A stretch of DNA of 64,000 nt from an uncultured Christensenella sp. (lineage in GTDB: Bacteria; Bacillota; Clostridia; Christensenellales; DTU072): the NCBI GenBank assembly GCA_949285605.1, contig CASDZI010000003.1, forward strand, positions 42,586 through 106,585, written 5' to 3'. Under the pieces are notes generated by a model. The model saw only the letters and a list, made by a program, of their open reading frames with translations, made no database searches and was not told where the DNA came from. The translations under genes and the position numbers were made by a program. Below are positions 3,315 to 25,745 of the stretch, in pieces (the first letter of the stretch is position 1; each line of letters starts with the position of its first letter).

Positions 3315-6300
3315 TCAGATGTCTCTTTTTATCTTACTTCTTTTTCCCAGTCCGACGCTGATTATCGCAATCGCCGCCACGGCTCCCGCACAGGCGAGGG
3401 CTATGCCAACTATCGCCCCCACCGGCAATCCGTCGTTTCCGTCTGCCGGTTCTCCGTCTCCCGAGGGAGGTATTTCGCTCCATTTTGCGTAAAGCACGGT
3501 ATCCTCTCCGAGCTCATTCAACGAATATATCCTCTCTCCGCTGAAATCGGGACTTGCGTACCAACCGTCGAAAAAGTAATTTTCTTTCTGCGGAGAAGGC
3601 AAAGGCGTGCCTGCCACATAGTTTTGCAAAACCTCTTCCCCGTCGCTCAACGAAAGGGTATAAATATTCCATTCCACCGTCACGGGATCCACCGTGTCGT
3701 CCTCCCAGGTATAATTGACGCTGTCTTTCAAACTTACCGTCGCCGTGTACGTTCCCGCATCTTTAGCTTTGTTTCCGCTTATGTCGCACAGCTCGGAAAC
3801 GTGTATTTCCGCAGTCTGTTCGCTGCCGGTATAAATAAGGTTACGAACGTTTTCGGGCTTGAATACTTTTGCGGGTACTATTTCCCAATTCAAAGTCAAA
3901 TCCTCCACCGTGGAGTCCTGCCAGGTGAAATTAGCTTTGTCTTTAAGCGAAGCCGTTGCGGTGTAATTTCCCGCAACAAGGGCAAAATTACCGCTCAAGG
4001 TATAATACTCGCTCTCCGCTATAGCCGCATACTGTCCCGACGGGGTATAAACGCTGTCTCCGAGGACGACGGGTTTATTTACTTTGAAGGGAACGATTGC
4101 CCACGCAACGGTCTTTATCCCGTAGCTTCCGTCTGCCCAGACGTAATTTGCGTCTTTCAAACTTATTTCGGCGATGTATTCCCCTGCGTTTTTAGCCGTG
4201 TTGTCGCTAAGAACGCAACTTCCGTCCACGGTGATGTCGGCTTCAAGCACAGACCCGTCATAGGTAACGCTCCCGTTATAGAACGGAAGAGCAAGCGTCT
4301 TTTTCTCCACAGTCCAGTCTAAGTTTTTATCCTCGGTCGTTCCGTCCGCCCAGACGTAATTGTTTTTACTTGTCAACGTCGCAGTGACCCTGTAACTGCC
4401 GGCGTTTACGGCGCTATTTCCGCTTAAAGTATAATGATCCGCTTTATTTACGGGAGCGTAAACCGTTTCGCCGCAATATACGGGCATCTCCGTCCCCATA
4501 ACGGGTATCGCCACTTCCAAAGGAAGAATTTTCCAGTCTATCGTTACGTCCGCAGTCTCTCCGCCCGTCCAACGGTAATTGGCGTTGACTAAACGTATCA
4601 CGGCGATATATTCCCCTGCGTCGGTAGCCTTGTTCCCCGTTACCGTGTATTCCGCTCTGGAGGCGACAGCTAACTGCTGTTCGGTCTGCGGAATGTAAAC
4701 GAATACCGTTTCTCCCACCGTGGGTACGGCAATTTCCTTGGGCAAAATACGCCAGGTCACGGTTTTTTCACCGTCGCCACCCGTCGCCCAGACGTAGTTT
4801 TCTTTGATTAAATTGAATTTTACTTCGTAAACTCCCGCATCCAGCTGTTTTTCTCCGGAAATTAAAATGCCGTCTCCGCCTTTCCATTCGAAAGTCTGCA
4901 TTTCGCCGCTGTAATAATATGTTTTTTCGACTATAAGCGTTTCGGGCAAAGGCACTTTTTTCTTTGCTATAGTCCATTCCAGAACGCGATCCTCCGTGGT
5001 TTCGTCCGCCCAACAGGTATTTGCTTTATCTTTAAGAGCAACCGTTAATTCATACGTTCCCGCTTCGACGGCGGTAAGTATACCCGAAGCTGTATAGTAT
5101 AACCCGGACGAAACTCCGCTTTCTTTTGCCTTTCCGTCGTAAACATTGTCTGTCTCAACGGTCGGGGCGGAAACTTTATATTTTGCGACTACCCAGACTA
5201 TATCAAAATAATTGCCTTCGGTATTCCGCCAACGGTAATTGTCGGGGTCGTTAAGGGTGACCGTAACCGTATAAGTGCCTGCCGCAACCGCCGTAAGAAC
5301 TCCGCCGAGAGTGAATTTGTCGTTGCTCGTCAAGGCAAAGTGCAAGGCGTTACCGTTATCGTAAACGTATTCCGTTTCGTCGGAAGGCTCGGGCAGAACT
5401 ATTTTTTCCACCGAAAACCCGTCTATCCGCAAAGATACCTCTCCGTAACGTAAAACGATATGCTCGTCTCCCGCTCTGAACGAATCCGCCGTCGGATACT
5501 CCACCGTGTAAGCGGATAAACTTTCTTCCGAGCCGTCGTTGTAAACTACGTTCACCGCCATATCCGTGGCATCAATTTTTTCGAAAGCAAAATATTCCGT
5601 CTTGGATGGCATATTTACCAAGACAAGTGCGACGACGTATTTTTTTACGGCGGTTATGGTCATCGTTCCGTTTACCGTCAGGTAATTTTCGTCGTCGGGA
5701 GTGAAAGTCCAGGCGTACTCCTTTTCTCCTATGACCAGTCCGTCGTAGTCTCCCCAAACGTATGTGCCTGCGGTGTCTCCCGAAGCGGAAATAATTTCGG
5801 GCAGGACGTTCCCCTCGTAATAGGTCACGTTCGCTACCGCAGGCCGTAAGGTAGGATAGGCTTTCGCTACGGAAACCGTTATCTCCAGAGAATAATTTAT
5901 ATAATTCGTCGGGTCGGAATTGAAATACGCTTCGTATGAAGACTTACTCACTACGGGTTTTTCGGTATCGTCGTTCCAGTAAATGTTATCGGGTAAGGTA
6001 ATGTCGGCTAAAGTCGTTTCGGGGTCGTACGTCACCGAAAAAGACGGGAGGATATAAGGGAGCATTTCTCCCGTAAAAGTGCCTTTTTCCAAGTTTACCG
6101 TCACGCTTAATTCGTAGTCTTTATAATTCGTCGGGTCGGCGTTATAGTAAGCTATGTACGAGGTTATTTTCCTCGTGGGTACCGTCGAAGCATCTTTCCA
6201 ACGGAAAGCGGGGAAACCGGATTTTTCGAAATCAAATGCGCTTAAGGACTGCGTTTTCGAATAAGTACCGCTGAAAGACGGAACTTCTCCGATATCTTCC

Positions 6301-8336
6301 TCGGTATAAGTTGCCTTTTCCAAAACAAGCGAGATGTACAGGGAATAATCGTTATAGTTTACGGGATCTGCGTTGAAAAAGGCCTCGTAAGTTTTCACGT
6401 CGACGGTCGGCGTTACGGACGAGTCTTTCCAACGGAAAGGGGAAGAATTTCCGAAATCGTAACTTTCCAATGTGGTTATTTTGGAATAAGTTCCCTCAAA
6501 GGACGGAACGGTTCCCACTTGTTCCTCCGTATAATCGGCTTTGGAAATTACTACCGTAAAGTTTCCGCTTTGTTTTTTAACGGTAAGTCCGTCGGCGTTG
6601 ACCGTCGCCACGCAGTAATACGTCCCCGACGAAGAAACGTCCGTTAAACTAATAGAAGAAGCGTTCGCCCCGTCGATTTTTTCGAATGGACCTTCTTCCG
6701 ACAAACTGTAAAACCACTCGTAGGTTATCGCTAAGTCGTGGGTAAATTCCGCCGTTATCGTACTTTCCTGTCCGTCGTAAACTTTACTTACGTCTCCGCT
6801 TTGGGATACGAAAACGATTTCGTCAAGTACCCATTTGGCGGTAAAAGTCGTGTTCTGACTAATATCGACCTTGGTTAACGGAGCGTAAGAAGTATCTCCA
6901 TCTCCCGTCTTCCAGCCGTCGAAAGAAAAGCCGGTTTTTTCTCTTGCGGGTAAAACCAGATACCAACCGTTATAGAGATCAAAGGTTTCGTCGGTAACGT
7001 CGTGGAGAGTAACGCTCTTTGCATCTCTTAACGCAACTCCCTGTATATCCGCCGTATTCCCTGCCAGAACCTCGGGTACAGGCAACCGACCTTCCGCCGC
7101 GCTCCAGCCATCCAACTTAGGATCTTTCATTTCGTCGGCGGAGATACCGCCTTGTTCGGGCGTGAGATATTTTACGAAATTCGAGTCCGAGTCCGAAGCG
7201 ATGTTCGGCGCCGTTGCGTAAACCGTTCCCGCAACAAACTCGTTTTCCACGGTTTCGCCCGTGGCTTTCACGTTGGCGGCGACAAGGGAATTTAATACGG
7301 TACCGTTATTTGTATAAGCTATGCCTGCCGCTCCGACTACTCCCTCGGCTTTACCGTAGAAAGCGCAGGTCGTTATACTTCCCGTGTTCTGTGCGGCGAT
7401 CCCTCCGACTTGTCTTGCTTTCAAGACTCCCGTAGCAAGGCAGTTTTCCACCGTGCCGCCGCCTTCGTTCGTTCCTACTATTCCGCCTGCATTTTCGATA
7501 CCTTCGGAAGTTATCGAGGCTGACGATAGACAAGCCGTAACGGTGCGGGCGTTAATTCCGACTATTCCGCCTGCATTTTCGATACCTTCGGAAGTTATCG
7601 ACGCTGACGATAAACAAGCCGTTACGGTCCCGTCGTTGGTTCCTGCTATTCCCCCCACCGTATCGGCTTTCGCCTCGGTAACGCTCGTAAGAGTACAGGA
7701 AGATACCGTGCCTGCATTATATCCGACGACGCCGCCTGCGAAGTAGTCGGGAGCGTTTATGTTTATATCGAGGTCTTCGACGGTAACGCTTGTGACGGCG
7801 CCTTCGTTGTAAGCGATCGCCCCTGCGTATCCTAAGTCGTCCGCTGTCGTCCCGAACGTTACGTCCAGTCCCGAAACCGTAAGGTTTTCTACCGAACCGC
7901 CCGTGCCGACGTAACCGAACAGCCCCGCCGCAACGGTTTTTACGCTTACGGTGACGTTACTTACCGTAAAACCGCCTCCGTTGAAAATGCCTTTGAAAAC
8001 TTTAGTCGTAGTCTGCGTTTCCCCGATTTCGATTTTTCCTATCGGAGTCCATTCCGAACCGTTCAGATCTATGTCTTTCGTAAGGGTGAAATATTCTCCG
8101 GCATAATTCGTACCGCCGTTGACTTGTGCGGCAAGGTAAGCGAGATCGTTTCCCGAAGAAATTTCGTAAGGATCGTCTTGCTTTCCGCTTCCCGAAAGCG
8201 TATCGGAAACGGCTCCCGTCCAAGGATCTATGGCGTAAGAGGTGTCGGAAACTCCTGCGGCTAAAACCGCTACGAATATCGCTAAAACAATCGTTACCGC
8301 CAACATAATTGCTAACGACGGAATTCTTTTTGCCAT
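3315..8336 (-). CDS. Giant repeat-rich cell-surface protein (GLUG-like repeats, Listeria-Bacteroides-type repeats, ~10 tandem Ig/MBG-like modules, C-terminal membrane anchor)
   Basis: The product is 1673 aa.
- N-terminal signal/TM: LAIMLAVTIVLAIFVAVLAAG.
- The first ~350 aa are rich in G-G-I-[AV]-G-x-N units.
- Two FxGW...AKW modules are present (FDGWKTGDGD..., FFDGWYASPDF...).
- A series of ~75-aa modules of the type YT(L/V)SGN-x-A-x-x-AG-x-Y-x-x-T-x-x-L-x-D-x-x-NY-x-W...W-x-I follows.
- The C-terminus has a Pro/Gly/Asp linker, then a hydrophobic helix and a KRSKIKRDI tail. There is no LPXTG motif.
AGGAGG sits 4 nt before the ATG at 8336, and the ORF-track start at 8351 lies upstream of that RBS. 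Confidence 0.75.
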   Translation of the reverse strand: MAKRIPSLAIMLAVTIVLAIFVAVLAAGVSDTSYAIDPWTGAVSDTLSGSGKQDDPYEISSGNDLAYLAAQVNGGTNYAGEYFTLTKDIDLNGSEWTPIGKIEIGETQTTTKVFKGIFNGGGFTVSNVTVSVKTVAAGLFGYVGTGGSVENLTVSGLDVTFGTTADDLGYAGAIAYNEGAVTSVTVEDLDININAPDYFAGGVVGYNAGTVSSCTLTSVTEAKADTVGGIAGTNDGTVTACLSSASITSEGIENAGGIVGINARTVTACLSSASITSEGIENAGGIVGTNEGGGTVENCLATGVLKARQVGGIAAQNTGSITTCAFYGKAEGVVGAAGIAYTNNGTVLNSLVAANVKATGETVENEFVAGTVYATAPNIASDSDSNFVKYLTPEQGGISADEMKDPKLDGWSAAEGRLPVPEVLAGNTADIQGVALRDAKSVTLHDVTDETFDLYNGWYLVLPAREKTGFSFDGWKTGDGDTSYAPLTKVDISQNTTFTAKWVLDEIVFVSQSGDVSKVYDGQESTITAEFTHDLAITYEWFYSLSEEGPFEKIDGANASSISLTDVSSSGTYYCVATVNADGLTVKKQSGNFTVVISKADYTEEQVGTVPSFEGTYSKITTLESYDFGNSSPFRWKDSSVTPTVDVKTYEAFFNADPVNYNDYSLYISLVLEKATYTEEDIGEVPSFSGTYSKTQSLSAFDFEKSGFPAFRWKDASTVPTRKITSYIAYYNADPTNYKDYELSVTVNLEKGTFTGEMLPYILPSFSVTYDPETTLADITLPDNIYWNDDTEKPVVSKSSYEAYFNSDPTNYINYSLEITVSVAKAYPTLRPAVANVTYYEGNVLPEIISASGDTAGTYVWGDYDGLVIGEKEYAWTFTPDDENYLTVNGTMTITAVKKYVVALVLVNMPSKTEYFAFEKIDATDMAVNVVYNDGSEESLSAYTVEYPTADSFRAGDEHIVLRYGEVSLRIDGFSVEKIVLPEPSDETEYVYDNGNALHFALTSNDKFTLGGVLTAVAAGTYTVTVTLNDPDNYRWRNTEGNYFDIVWVVAKYKVSAPTVETDNVYDGKAKESGVSSGLYYTASGILTAVEAGTYELTVALKDKANTCWADETTEDRVLEWTIAKKKVPLPETLIVEKTYYYSGEMQTFEWKGGDGILISGEKQLDAGVYEVKFNLIKENYVWATGGDGEKTVTWRILPKEIAVPTVGETVFVYIPQTEQQLAVASRAEYTVTGNKATDAGEYIAVIRLVNANYRWTGGETADVTIDWKILPLEVAIPVMGTEMPVYCGETVYAPVNKADHYTLSGNSAVNAGSYRVTATLTSKNNYVWADGTTEDKNLDWTVEKKTLALPFYNGSVTYDGSVLEADITVDGSCVLSDNTAKNAGEYIAEISLKDANYVWADGSYGIKTVAWAIVPFKVNKPVVLGDSVYTPSGQYAAIAESEYYTLSGNFALVAGNYTATASLKDKANFTWQDSTVEDLTLNWEIVPAKVFKPENVRNLIYTGSEQTAEIHVSELCDISGNKAKDAGTYTATVSLKDSVNYTWEDDTVDPVTVEWNIYTLSLSDGEEVLQNYVAGTPLPSPQKENYFFDGWYASPDFSGERIYSLNELGEDTVLYAKWSEIPPSGDGEPADGNDGLPVGAIVGIALACAGAVAAIAIISVGLGKRSKIKRDI
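7477..7644. repeat. Near-perfect 84-bp tandem duplication inside the surface-protein gene
   Basis: ACTATTCCGCCTGCATTTTCGATACCTTCGGAAGTTATCGA... begins at 7477 and again at 7561. Only a few mismatches occur over the first ~70 nt. The duplication encodes TVTACLSSASITSEGIENAGGIVG twice, as 28-aa units. Confidence 0.9.
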
Positions 8337-8445
8337 AATGCCTCCTTGCATTATACTATAGAAATATTACTTTTATATTATACTGATTATTCCGCTACAC
8401 CGTCAAGCCCCGTGCCTTCGGGAGAAAACCGACTTTATATCGGTA

Positions 8446-22837: not shown

Positions 22838-22872
22838 AAAAAGAGTTCCGTCATTTCGGAACTCTTTTTTTG
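22838..22872. terminator. Bidirectional intrinsic terminator after guaB, also downstream of the GNAT gene
   Basis: AAAAAGAGTTCCG-TCATTT-CGGAACTCTTTTTTT. Confidence 0.85.
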
Positions 22873-22896: not shown

Positions 22897-23391
22897 TTAC
22901 AAGGCAATAGTATAAATATTTCTTTCATAAATCTCATTTTTGATCGTTGTTGCCTTTAATTTCGCACCAATATGAGCAAAAGAATGTAAACTTGCTTGAT
23001 TATTAGGATGAATTGTAGCAATAATATTCTTAATTCCTTTCTTTTTTGCTATTTTTAGAAGCCTTTTGTTGAGTTTATATAAATAATTATGCCCACGATA
23101 TTTCGGCGCAATCATGCACCGTCCTATTTCAGCAACAGGTCTCTCTGTATGAGAACATAATTCTAACGAAGCACCATATTCGTGTTCGTTGAAGAATAAA
23201 CAAGAGGCCCCTATAAGTTTTCTCCTATCGAATAACCCCAAAAAATAACACCATTCATCGTTCAGAAAATTTTTTCTGGAAACTTCGTTTATCGGCAACC
23301 ACCATCGTTTGTCAACCAGATTCTTTTCTATCTCCTCAATCAAGGCATCCAAAATTTCGGAGTGTTTTTTCTTTAATTTCTTGATTTTCAT
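22897..23391 (-). CDS. GNAT-family N-acetyltransferase (distal gene of the TIR operon)
   Basis: It has a GNAT motif A-like core (IGRCMIAPKYRGHNYLYKLNKRLLKIAKKKGIKNIIATIHPNNQASLHSF). The ATG at 23391..23389 overlaps the TIR gene stop as TAATG. An alternative in-frame ATG at 23412 would give a 22-nt overlap. The gene is AT-rich. Confidence 0.7.
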   Translation of the reverse strand: MKIKKLKKKHSEILDALIEEIEKNLVDKRWWLPINEVSRKNFLNDEWCYFLGLFDRRKLIGASCLFFNEHEYGASLELCSHTERPVAEIGRCMIAPKYRGHNYLYKLNKRLLKIAKKKGIKNIIATIHPNNQASLHSFAHIGAKLKATTIKNEIYERNIYTIAL

Positions 23392-24728
23392 TATTTTCTT
23401 ATTATAATACATGGACGGAGGCTTGCCGCAGTATCGTCTACATAATTACAAAAAGGCACGGCTTCGACACAACCCCTACGATCTATATTTTCTACCGAGT
23501 CGTTGGTAACTCCCGGAGATCTCGTCCACCAGTCTCCTTTGCCGTAATGACTGGCGCTTGTGCTGGAATATGCTCCTCTGGCTTTAGCATAATCGGTAGT
23601 CAATGCACCGTCACAACTCGTTTTGTATATTTCCTTATGACTTATCAGAAAGACTTTATCGTTGGTATCCGCCGATGTAGAAGGATAATAACCGCTATTA
23701 GTATTGTCGATTTTGGTATATACAATTTTTTCCCGCTCAAACTCATTAAAAGCGTCATAAAAGAATTCATTGTTTAACCAACGCCTTATGTAGGAAGTCT
23801 CCCAGTTATTTGCGGCGTAAAAAGTGCTATTATCAATTCTTTGGGCAAAACGGTTAAGACTAAATTGTACCGCATCGATAATTCTTTCCGAAATAGCAAA
23901 ATAGTGTTGTTCGTCCTCAAACAGAATATTCCAAACAATAGGGCTTATTTCATAATAATTCCTCGCACCTGCATTAATAACCTTCCCGTTATCGAATTTG
24001 GTTTTATTAAAAGGATTTTCCGCTATAGTGGCGTAGGATTTTCCTCTATAGTTCAAAGTATATGTGTTAGGATTAAGGGTCGTCTCTCCATTAAACATTC
24101 CCGTCGCTATTTTGTCAATAAGATCTATGTCCGATACTACGGACTGCGGATAACTACCGAAGGATATTTTTTTATCGTTAACTATTTTAAACTCGTCAAT
24201 ATTCAATTCAAAAACAGATGTCGTTTCCGTTTTCCGCGGATTAGAATCTAACGAAGCCAAAATAACGGGAATTAAATCGATTTCAGCCTTAAAATTATAT
24301 ACACCTAAATAATTAACCGGATTTATATGCCTTATTCTGTTAATTTCCGTATTTTCAAAAACACGAAACATTTCAGGCTGATCGTCATAGGAGAAATCAG
24401 ACAAAGCAACCGGTATGAATGAGATATTAGGATTTTGCAAGGCAGTTTTTATTTCAAAATACACCATATCGTCATCATTTACACATTTTCGAAAATAATC
24501 CTTATCCAATAATAATATAAAGCATTTGACGTCTTGCAGTACGTTCTTGATGACTTCCTTAAAATCCTCTCCTTTCGGTATACACAACGGTGCAAAAAAA
24601 GGAACAAACTCGTTGATCATATTTGCATTACGATAATGCAATAAATCTTTATAAATAGAGGAACCTAATTCACCCGTCCGATCTCCTCTATAAGAAATAA
24701 ATACGTTGTACTCTTGTCCTTTGTACAT
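23391..24728 (-). CDS. TIR domain protein fused to a DUF6273-like C-terminal domain
   Basis: The N-terminal ~150 aa read YNVFISYRGDRTGELGSSIYKDL...CIPKGEDF...CFILLLDKDYF...MVYFEIKTAL...ISFIPVAL. This is the TIR beta-A FISYR motif, a BB-loop-like segment and the conserved Glu position. The C-terminal ~270 aa read ISFGSYPQSVV, IVWNIL, NNWETSYIRRWLNNEFFYDAF, DKVFLISHKEI, GDWWTRSPG, SLRPCIII. From memory, this pattern matches the family catalogued as DUF6273. No signal peptide or TM is present. Confidence 0.75.
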   Translation of the reverse strand: MYKGQEYNVFISYRGDRTGELGSSIYKDLLHYRNANMINEFVPFFAPLCIPKGEDFKEVIKNVLQDVKCFILLLDKDYFRKCVNDDDMVYFEIKTALQNPNISFIPVALSDFSYDDQPEMFRVFENTEINRIRHINPVNYLGVYNFKAEIDLIPVILASLDSNPRKTETTSVFELNIDEFKIVNDKKISFGSYPQSVVSDIDLIDKIATGMFNGETTLNPNTYTLNYRGKSYATIAENPFNKTKFDNGKVINAGARNYYEISPIVWNILFEDEQHYFAISERIIDAVQFSLNRFAQRIDNSTFYAANNWETSYIRRWLNNEFFYDAFNEFEREKIVYTKIDNTNSGYYPSTSADTNDKVFLISHKEIYKTSCDGALTTDYAKARGAYSSTSASHYGKGDWWTRSPGVTNDSVENIDRRGCVEAVPFCNYVDDTAASLRPCIIIRK

Positions 24729-24748: not shown

Positions 24749-24777
24749 ATTATACTATAAAACCTTACTATTTTCAA
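24749..24777 (-). promoter_or_regulatory. Promoter of the TIR-GNAT operon
   Basis: The minus strand has TTGAAA (24777..24772), a 17-nt spacer, then TATAAT (24754..24749). A short leader with an AAGGGGGG RBS precedes the ATG at 24728. Confidence 0.6.
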
Positions 24778-24830: not shown

Positions 24831-24859
24831 TTGACAAAGGAACGGTTAAATTGTAAAAT
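24831..24859 (+). promoter_or_regulatory. Promoter of the small Lys/Glu-rich protein gene
   Basis: TTGACA (24831..24836), a 17-nt spacer, then TAAAAT (24854..24859). An AAGGAG RBS precedes the ATG at 24882. Confidence 0.5.
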
Positions 24860-24881: not shown

Positions 24882-25160
24882 ATGTCTAAGAAAACCGATA
24901 AACTTACCCCCGAAGAAAAGAAAATAAGATATGACGCCGCTATGGCTAAACTTCAGGAAAAACACGATAAAAAAATAGTCAAGCTCGCCGAAAAAAAGGC
25001 TCGTCTTACTGCTAAGCTCAAAGAAAAATATGCCGAAGATCCCGAAAAACTGGAACTCGAACTCGGTATCCTTACCATAGACAACGACGTTTGGATCGCT
25101 ATGGCGGACGCCGAACTTGCCGAAAAAGCCAAAACTCTGGAACTTTTGTATTTGAAATAA
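24882..25160 (+). CDS. Hypothetical small Lys/Glu-rich, predicted all-helical protein
   Basis: This 92-aa ORF has its own promoter, RBS and terminator. KKIVKLAEKKARLTAKLKEKYAEDPEKLELEL suggests a coiled coil. I recognise no family. Confidence 0.5.
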   Translation: MSKKTDKLTPEEKKIRYDAAMAKLQEKHDKKIVKLAEKKARLTAKLKEKYAEDPEKLELELGILTIDNDVWIAMADAELAEKAKTLELLYLK

Positions 25161-25182
25161 AAATTTTGAGTTAATATAACGA

Positions 25183-25220
25183 CCCCTTTTTGTCGTATAA
25201 AAAGGGGTTTTTATTTTTTA
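25183..25220 (+). terminator. Intrinsic terminator after the small protein gene
   Basis: CCCCTTTTT-GTCGTAT-AAAAAGGGG is followed by TTTTTATTTTTT. Confidence 0.8.
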
Positions 25221-25745
25221 CATGATCTTTTCGAAACGGAAAAAAGTTTCGAGGCGATTCCCCTCGCTCCCTTCCGCCTTTTCCTGGCTATTATCGGGAT
25301 GACTTGCGCAGAAAAATTCCACTATACGAAAACCGCATTTGTTCACATAAAAATGAATATTCCTTTCTTCGAAATATGGCGTTACCGTCTCCCATATTTT
25401 CGTATCGGGATATTTCCTTTCGATAGCTTTCCATGCTTTATAACCTAAACCTTTGGTATGCTCGGTAACTTTTATGAAAAAAAGATCCAACGAATTACGG
25501 TGCGTTTCTTTGTTTATCGAAACAACTACCCCTCCGACCGTTTTCCCGTCGTAAACGATATGATAACTTTCCGCCGAGGGCTCTTCGATATTTGCCAGAA
25601 TATCCTTCTCCGAAGGTATAGGTTCGTCTTTTCCGAATTTTTCTCTGACCGTTACCGCAAAAGCCTCCCGCAGCGTTTGCGAAAAAACCGGGATTTCTTC
25701 CTTTTTTAACGGCAAAAAAGATATTTCGCTTTCTTCCATGCTCAC
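25218..25745 (-). CDS. GNAT-family N-acetyltransferase
   Basis: This 175-aa protein reads VGGVVVSINKETHRNSLDLFFIKVTEHTKGLGYKAWKAIE, a GNAT beta4-alpha3 motif A context. Confidence 0.7.
   Translation of the reverse strand: MSMEESEISFLPLKKEEIPVFSQTLREAFAVTVREKFGKDEPIPSEKDILANIEEPSAESYHIVYDGKTVGGVVVSINKETHRNSLDLFFIKVTEHTKGLGYKAWKAIERKYPDTKIWETVTPYFEERNIHFYVNKCGFRIVEFFCASHPDNSQEKAEGSEGNRLETFFRFEKIM

Follow-up and report, generated by a model that had tools for sequence, protein, structure and literature searches.

A TIR–DUF6273 fusion gene overlapping a GNAT acetyltransferase gene: a candidate two-gene conflict cassette from uncultured gut Clostridia

We analyzed a stretch of 64,000 nt (hereafter, the window) from an uncultured Christensenella sp. 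(GenBank assembly GCA_949285605.1, contig CASDZI010000003.1, positions 42,586 to 106,585) and found that it carries a 1.9-kb cassette of two genes on the minus strand. The first gene (23391-24728) begins with ATG and encodes, before its stop codon, a protein of 445 residues in which an N-terminal TIR domain is joined to a C-terminal DUF6273 domain. The second gene (22897-23391) encodes a GNAT acetyltransferase of 164 residues plus a stop, and the two genes overlap in the sequence TAATG at position 23391, where the stop codon TAA of the first and the start codon ATG of the second share one base. In 16 of the 17 distinct contexts of the full-length family, the next gene downstream is a homologous GNAT that overlaps or abuts the first gene. 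The overlap and this recurrent adjacency indicate that the two genes are one translationally coupled unit and that the GNAT is a dedicated partner. We consider it quite probable that the cassette is a conflict or defence system, and we give an even chance to the more specific reading that the two genes were acquired horizontally and form a conflict cassette, most probably an anti-phage system of the abortive-infection type.

A preliminary description of this DNA had reported an unusual fusion of a TIR domain and a DUF6273-like domain at 23391-24728. These coordinates are exact, but the strand needed to be corrected: the plus-strand frame contains many stops and the real open reading frame (ORF) runs on the minus strand from 24728 to 23391. 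The coupled GNAT gene, which is part of the unit, had been overlooked. Every motif quoted for the protein is present in its translation, namely FISYRG (residues 10-15), CIPKGEDF (49-56) and VYFEIKTAL (89-97), followed by FGSYPQ (190-195), IVWNIL (264-269), NNWETSYIRRWLN (307-319), DKVFLISHKEI (357-367), WWTRSPG (400-406) and SLRPCIII (436-443). The fusion itself was borne out by Pfam, by the SARM1 profile match and by Foldseek, and about 45 homologues present the same architecture, which shows that it is not a product of chance or of faulty assembly. The absence of a signal peptide or transmembrane segment was also upheld: none is evident, the maximal Kyte-Doolittle average over 19 residues is 1.1 and the first strand of the TIR domain begins at residue 8. 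A membrane or secreted protein was thus ruled out by hydropathy and by the N-terminus.

The TIR domain and its C-terminal helices span residues 8-162 (24243-24707, minus strand). A profile built from 45 family members matched the TIR domain of SARM1 in the PDB (E = 5e-4). Precomputed matches to the Pfam family TIR_2 exist for about half of the homologues. In the full-length AlphaFold model (predicted local distance difference test [pLDDT] 79.8; predicted template modelling score [pTM] 0.70), the TIR part reaches a pLDDT of around 87-92. Foldseek matched this model with probability 1.0 to the TIR domains of SARM1, TIR-1, AbTir and SPARTA, with target-normalised template modelling (TM) scores of 0.6-0.69 to the first three. 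These results confirm that the N-terminal domain adopts the flavodoxin-like TIR fold and is SARM1/AbTir-like, despite a Pfam score below threshold in the window protein. The glutamate of VYFEIKTAL, E92 (codon 24453-24455, minus strand), had been singled out as the conserved TIR residue; it is indeed invariant in the 45 family members and in 16 paralogues joining the same TIR to other modules (hereafter, TIR-X), and the profile alignment places it on the glutamate of SARM1 "WVHKEIVTAL" and G53 on the glycine of the SARM1 BB loop (which we take to be E642 and G601, respectively). D86 and D87 are likewise invariant across the family and its paralogues, and the invariant residues within the family comprise F10, I11, Y13, R14, G15, F44, F45, A46, P47, G53, D86, D87 and E92. 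Judging from these residues, E92 is the putative catalytic glutamate and the TIR domain is probably an active NAD+ glycohydrolase.

A variable linker (residues 163-185; 24174-24242, minus strand) separates the two domains. The highest entropy of the family falls on residues 166-185 and pLDDT drops below 50 at residues 164-169. The DUF6273 domain follows (residues 186-445; 23394-24173, minus strand), and Pfam matched it to PF19789 over residues 297-443 (E = 9.4e-20; 71.6 bits against a gathering score of 23.5), in agreement with the family named in the preliminary description. The fold search with the full-length model was swamped by TIR matches, so we modelled residues 177-445 on their own (AlphaFold; alignment of 55 sequences). 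The model shows one compact domain of about 270 residues (pLDDT 94.7; pTM 0.91), larger than both the 172-position Pfam model and the match of ~150 residues. Its sole significant neighbour in the PDB was the IgA peptidase of Thomasclavelia ramosa (9qa6; E = 1.2e-5; 280 columns), and a viral library yielded 14 matches at E < 1e-3, mostly phage "DUF6273 domain-containing" proteins with probability 1.0. TM scores to 9qa6 and to the phage proteins were modest (0.4-0.48), and fold matches in the PDB and the viral library were largely confined to DUF6273 proteins. When the PDB was searched by sequence, neither the A4 profile nor the single C-domain sequence retrieved anything relevant. The family, which had been called uncharacterised, is no longer wholly so: the authors of 9qa6 assign the N-terminal domain of this secreted IgA peptidase to DUF6273, and in three papers DUF6273 is presented as a binding domain similar to C-type lectins. 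The same papers report it as a recurrent target of diversity-generating retroelements (DGRs) in gut-phage receptor-binding proteins, where the variable region lies at the C-terminus of the domain.

The window protein shares with the wider DUF6273 family the framework FGxYPQ, NxWxxSxxRxWLN, DxvFLxS, WWTRS and RP. Additional residues are invariant in the TIR-DUF6273 subfamily and missing from the wider family: N241, K242, H364, E366, D399, E413, N414, D416, R417, R418, C427, N428 and D432. Many of these fall in the last 51 residues (395-445, GDWWTRSPG...ENxDRRG...PFCNYVxDT...RP; 23394-23546, minus strand), the equivalent of the variable region of the phage DGR targets. This stretch is the most conserved of the family, with the lowest entropy and 23 of its 51 positions invariant. 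No repeat of the 3' end of the gene was found within the 64-kb window and no reverse transcriptase was present among the larger ORFs scanned there. A DGR target was therefore ruled out: this copy is not diversified and its presumed binding face is fixed, as would suit a ligand that does not vary better than a phage protein that evolves fast. The preliminary description had proposed that the non-TIR part senses a ligand or a phage component. A sensor is a reasonable proposal given the lectin-like literature and the lectin-fold domains known from conflict systems, and we regard this role of DUF6273 as rather likely. The context of four loci favours a role in defence.

The GNAT partner matches Acetyltransf_1 (PF00583) with 41.5 bits against a gathering score of 20.7. 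Its acetyl-CoA loop, R-G-x-N/G-x-L, is a variant of the usual R/Q-x-x-G-x-G/A, and binding of the cofactor appears likely from this motif. Its relatives form a tight family of 74 clusters and about 164-170 residues. When lookups were started from these relatives, two of three were again located behind a DUF6273 gene (446 and 453 residues) and the most divergent one was not. A profile search against the PDB gave as nearest solved relatives EctA, YncA and phosphinothricin-acetyltransferase (PA4866-type) enzymes; these act on small molecules (amino-acid-analogue N-acetyltransferases) and are not tRNA-acetylating toxins. We also considered a GNAT toxin of the TacT/AtaT type and rejected it: the profile search gave no support and the neighbour is the 445-residue TIR protein, with no antitoxin. 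The protein consists of the catalytic domain alone and lacks SLOG, Macro, SAVED or any comparable domain for binding a signal. We tentatively assign the GNAT the role of a modulator or of a tailoring enzyme, and not that of the effector, at somewhat less than even odds. Literature searches found no paper describing a TIR and GNAT pair.

We then considered how the family is distributed. A word-indexed search gave about 45 clusters of full-length homologues (441-470 residues; 40-94% identity), all with DUF6273; a word-indexed search with the TIR profile missed known family members and thus falls short of a full census. Among 1.84 billion representatives at 50% identity, an exhaustive HMMER search recovered only three that cover both halves. 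All named sources are metagenome-assembled genomes of uncultured Clostridia or Bacillota that come from the guts of animals and humans. None of the sequenced phages and plasmids that were searched by tblastn contained the fusion; they gave only distant matches to DUF6273 alone, by which carriage on such elements was rejected. Other DUF6273 matches number in the thousands, and those scanned belong to large surface proteins made up of many repeats, with Flg_new, dockerin, choline-binding or cadherin-like modules. DUF6273 is thus almost always found in extracellular, surface or phage proteins, and its occurrence in a fusion with a cytoplasmic TIR is an exception; the range of fusions to other effectors that the preliminary description had thought worth a census did not appear. 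One homologous locus (L010:7995-9328) presents a TIR-DUF6273 frame that is broken after 256 residues, although tblastn matches residues 5-445 and the downstream GNAT is intact. The break marks either a pseudogene or a frameshift introduced during assembly.

In contrast to DUF6273, the TIR module is promiscuous. TIR domains of the same clade, 36-43% identical over residues 5-156 and with the same invariant residues, are joined to other modules at the same variable linker, which is therefore a module-swap junction. In Christensenellaceae, Stercoripulliclostridium and relatives, the TIR is joined to a class I methyltransferase fold (Methyltransf_23) in a protein of about 463 residues, and most of the loci that were fetched have a homologous GNAT directly downstream. 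Protein P0165 combines the TIR with a transmembrane helix and an extracellular Ser/Thr-rich, Ig-like tail, P0239 joins it to helical repeats, and P0247 (L046:656-2874; 536 residues) carries a region of 350 residues without a Pfam match. The gene of P0247 overlaps by 4 nt a HAD hydrolase gene that stands in the place of the GNAT. Several related architectures were noted along the way. The TIR-Methyltransf_23 and GNAT sister cassettes (L012-L032; e.g., L014:8001-9920) are apparently undescribed. An 831-residue protein (L035:7989-10484) joins the TIR, at the same linker, to a domain similar to IF-2B and methylthioribose-1-phosphate isomerase and has no GNAT downstream. Finally, P0114 (295 residues, from a JGI metagenome) joins a more distant TIR_2 domain to an FGE-sulfatase (lectin-fold) domain and represents a parallel, independent fusion of a TIR to a lectin fold, here of a different domain family.

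The cassette stands out from its surroundings. It is an islet of low GC-content (35.5%; remainder of the window, 48.6%) located between guaB and a serA-like gene, in what is otherwise ordinary chromosome (uvrA, uvrB, hydrogenase and others). Three contigs of the same species (L001-L003) are syntenic with the window. Relative to the first of them (L001), the flanking genes are 93-95% identical at the nucleotide level, whereas the TIR-DUF6273 gene is 84.7% and the GNAT gene 79.6% identical. The cassette alleles thus appear to be much older than their flanks within one species. The TIR gene differs between the two by 26 amino-acid changes against 162 codons with synonymous changes only, a pattern expected of strong purifying selection. 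The genomic position of the cassette differs between taxa, and four contexts are TIR-rich conflict islands that contain TIR-LRR, TIR-HD, ThsB-like TIR, kinase, TIR-STING, CAP12-PCTIR TIR and Endonuclease_NS genes, as well as Macro, ADP-ribosylglycohydrolase, CN_hydrolase-TIR-LRR, Fic and RyR. In another locus (L039), the cassette adjoins an IS110 transposase element. The TIR-rich neighbours, the IS110 element, the foreign GC-content, the shifting position and the age of the alleles relative to the flanks all argue for a role in conflict. Two islands of this kind deserve mention in themselves: L037:1-17356 and L040:5194-16670, both from uncultured Clostridia, are dense and TIR-centred and hold several large ORFs without an assigned family. 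Their contents include TIR-LRR beside a CitMHS transporter, TIR-HD, TIR-DUF4190, a Ser/Thr kinase, TIR-STING, Metallophos, TerB, CAP12-PCTIR TIR, Endonuclease_NS, Macro and ADP-ribosylglycohydrolase.

These observations suggest the following mechanism. The product of the first gene would act as a cytoplasmic sensor-effector, with the SARM1-like TIR as the NAD+-cleaving effector and the C-terminal DUF6273 as a lectin-like binding module. The face of DUF6273 that is diversified by DGRs in the phage homologues would here bind an invariant ligand, which could be a conserved epitope or a polar small molecule such as a glycan. Binding would lead the TIR domains to self-associate and complete a composite active site, and NAD+ would then be hydrolysed. 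The GNAT would not be the killing effector but would act on a small molecule, tailoring or neutralising either the NAD-derived product of the TIR or the activating ligand; a small-molecule substrate is suggested because the nearest solved relatives are small-molecule enzymes and because the sister TIR-X gene has an overlapping HAD hydrolase. A bolder version, which we think improbable, is that the TIR and its co-translated enzyme (GNAT, or HAD phosphatase in the sister clade) make or edit a new NAD-derived immune molecule, for example an acetylated ADP-ribose derivative or an amino-acid-ADP-ribose conjugate, and that the swappable C-terminal module (lectin-like DUF6273, methyltransferase fold or IF-2B-like) is a sensor of metabolites or glycans, which detects a small-molecule pool changed by infection and not a phage protein. 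If true, TIR-X proteins with their tailoring enzymes would make up a new family of systems in which a domain of the phage tail-fibre type acts within the cell.

Several observations weigh against the defence reading or one of its parts. The TIR_2 match (PF13676) of the window protein (E = 1.7e-5; 25.7 bits) falls short of the gathering score of 28, and the tryptophan of SARM1 (W638) is replaced by Met or Ile in the family. One context of a full-length homologue (L005) lacks the GNAT. The lectin fold of the C-domain, for which the preliminary description had suggested a comparison with lectins and FGE-sulfatases, was not reproduced by Foldseek against the PDB or by hhalign: the FGE paralogue 1y4j was matched with only E = 5.4, and the hhalign alignment to an FGE-sulfatase protein covered the TIR and not the C-domain. 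DUF6273 is extracellular nearly everywhere else. The conservation of residues 395-445 and the purifying selection are unlike many arms-race sensors, and a metabolic ligand would fit them too. About half of the annotated contexts, including that of the window, are housekeeping neighbourhoods without another defence gene. Finally, PADLOC-DB v2.0 contains no match at E ≤ 0.1 for the TIR-DUF6273 protein. It contains none for 13 GNAT partners either, and nothing exceeded the NCBIfam cut-offs, so that an assignment to a known defence system was rejected.

We compared the cassette with the systems that it resembles most. Its TIR has the fold of the NAD+-cleaving TIRs of SARM1 and AbTir, with the catalytic glutamate and BB-loop glycine aligned, and differs by the sub-threshold Pfam score of this copy. 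In TIR-STING and TIR-SAVED proteins, the TIR is also N-terminal to a ligand-binding module, and a TIR-STING gene adjoins the cassette in L037; these systems differ in their sensor, a cyclic-nucleotide receptor where the cassette has DUF6273, and the cassette lacks a cyclase partner but has a GNAT. Lectin-fold domains C-terminal to TIR or caspase-like effectors have already been described in conflict systems (PMC7159879; PMC10907252). The DGR-diversified FGS/CLec sensors of cyanobacteria and gammaproteobacteria, which carry TIR, caspase-like or STAND modules, present the same order of N-terminal effector and C-terminal lectin-like binder, and the idea is the same, that a binding domain also known from phage receptor-binding proteins would serve as an intracellular antigen sensor (PMC7159879; PMC10907252). 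In contrast, the domain here is DUF6273 (PF19789) and not FGE-sulfatase (PF03781), the lineage is Clostridia, there is no reverse transcriptase or template repeat, the equivalent of the variable region is the most conserved part and there is no vWA-MoxR or STAND partner. Phage receptor-binding DUF6273 proteins (tentaclins, Mtd-like) and 9qa6 share the Pfam family, the fold match and the sequence framework with the window protein, whereas the TIR-DUF6273 protein is cytoplasmic and has a single copy of the domain without Ig-like, Flg_new or dockerin modules. The TIR-Methyltransf_23 and GNAT cassettes have a homologous TIR, the GNAT directly downstream and the same gene order and size, and differ by their C-terminal module, a class I S-adenosylmethionine-methyltransferase fold. 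We therefore view the cassette as a variation on TIR sensor-effector systems, with no categorically new mechanism.

Thoeris, in which the TIR protein ThsB acts with ThsA, is another known system with a similar layout: a TIR protein is accompanied by a second gene and TIR variants carry different accessory regions. By analogy, TIR-DUF6273 could sense infection and produce an NAD-derived signal that switches on the GNAT as an effector, which would acetylate an essential target (e.g., aminoacyl-tRNA) and arrest growth. The translational coupling of the two genes agrees with this, as does the co-inheritance of TIR and partner while the sensor-like module is swapped between DUF6273 and a methyltransferase-like domain, which recalls the ThsB variants that share one ThsA. 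GNATs bind CoA, an ADP-containing ligand. The GNAT protein also evolves faster than the TIR protein (19% against 6% amino-acid differences between strains). However, no SIR2/SLOG or Macro/transmembrane ThsA lies beside the TIR-DUF6273 gene, and the 164-residue GNAT that occupies this place has no domain to bind a signal, no detectable similarity to TacT/AtaT and solved relatives that are small-molecule acetyltransferases. The TIR is nearer to SARM1 and AbTir than to ThsB (target-normalised TM of 0.33 to 9b7d), the NCBIfam Thoeris model ThcB4 scores 15 bits against a cut-off of 220 and PADLOC gives no Thoeris match. Moreover, one family member lacks the GNAT and the sister clade has a HAD hydrolase instead. 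These results make a Thoeris-like pair unlikely.

The coupling of the two genes in a compact unit is also what an addiction module would present, in which the TIR would be a constitutive NADase toxin and the GNAT an immunity factor, by acetylation or binding, without any sensing of phages. The foreign GC-content, the patchy distribution, the IS element that adjoins one locus and the co-divergence of the TIR and GNAT genes are all compatible with such a toxin and antidote. A highly conserved binding domain of 270 residues would, however, be purposeless in this case, one homologue persists without the GNAT, the cassette was absent from the sequenced plasmids and phages searched and it is repeatedly embedded among TIR defence genes. 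We consider this alternative doubtful, well below an even chance and of the same low order as the new immune molecule raised above.

A further alternative, which we hold to have only a slim chance, is a small-molecule pathway unrelated to immunity, with the TIR as an N-glycosidase or base-exchange enzyme, the C-terminal module binding or modifying the substrate and the GNAT or HAD tailoring the product. Indeed, the swapped modules and partners are all binders of small molecules or cofactors (Methyltransf_23, the IF-2B/methylthioribose-1-phosphate-isomerase-like domain, GNAT and HAD), the binding face is under strong purifying selection and several neighbourhoods are of the housekeeping type. 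Yet no other biosynthetic gene is consistently linked to the cassette, whose neighbourhoods are wholly different between taxa and include four loci enriched in defence genes; DUF6273 has no known catalytic member, and P0165, with its membrane TIR and extracellular Ig-like tail, resembles a receptor and not an enzyme. The least likely of the four alternatives, and a very improbable one, is a host-directed or surface factor released like the bacterial TIR proteins of the Tcp type, whose lectin-like domain would bind host or neighbouring cells: DUF6273 is elsewhere extracellular (surface proteins, a secreted IgA protease, phage receptor-binding proteins) and the source organisms are gut commensals, but the protein has neither signal peptide nor transmembrane segment and shows no sortase motif and no anchor repeats, the cassette is not linked to secretion genes, the gene is tightly coupled to a cytoplasmic-type GNAT and the neighbours are intracellular immune genes.

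If the anti-phage reading is confirmed, the cassette would be a new two-gene addition to the TIR immune repertoire, from poorly sampled gut Clostridia, and DUF6273 would be able to trigger an NAD+-cleaving effector within the cell without diversification by a DGR. That the binding face is frozen implies one conserved ligand, whose identification would be unusually tractable. The GNAT recurs, also beside the paralogues fused to a methyltransferase, and this suggests that acetylation has a role in TIR-based immunity that is so far unexplored. With a size of 1.9 kb and a predicted promoter and terminator of its own, the cassette should be easy to synthesise and test. The promoter-like site (24749-24777, minus strand; TTGAAA, 17 nt, TATAAT) lies 21 nt 5' of the TIR start and agrees with the consensus at 11 of 12 positions; it is a consensus match only, in a region where such sites are no more numerous than expected from shuffled sequence, and its position is the sole argument for it. 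On the other side, a bidirectional hairpin (22838-22869, no strand) with a perfect 13-bp stem between an A-run and a T-run could serve as terminator of both the cassette and the convergent guaB.

A few other genes of the window were also inspected. A putative surface protein of 1678 residues (3315-8351, minus strand) in which Flg_new and Big_3 repeats are accompanied by internal repeats at the DNA level (D1-D3) is of the type that usually carries DUF6273, yet it has no DUF6273 match at E ≤ 1e-5. Next to the cassette, a Lys/Glu-rich ORF of 92 residues (24882-25160, plus strand) is oriented divergently to the TIR gene; it matches no family, possesses its own promoter-like site (24831-24859) and terminator (25181-25209) and is 98% identical in L001-L003. 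A second GNAT, unrelated to the partner, also adjoins the cassette (25218-25745, minus strand; 175 residues; Acetyltransf_1, E = 6e-7). Apart from the copies of the small ORF in L001-L003, both genes are missing from all other cassette loci and were therefore rejected as parts of the system. The second GNAT is missing even from L001-L003, which are otherwise syntenic with the window; it is thus a strain-variable gene, and this hints at a small hotspot of gene gain and loss at the spot.

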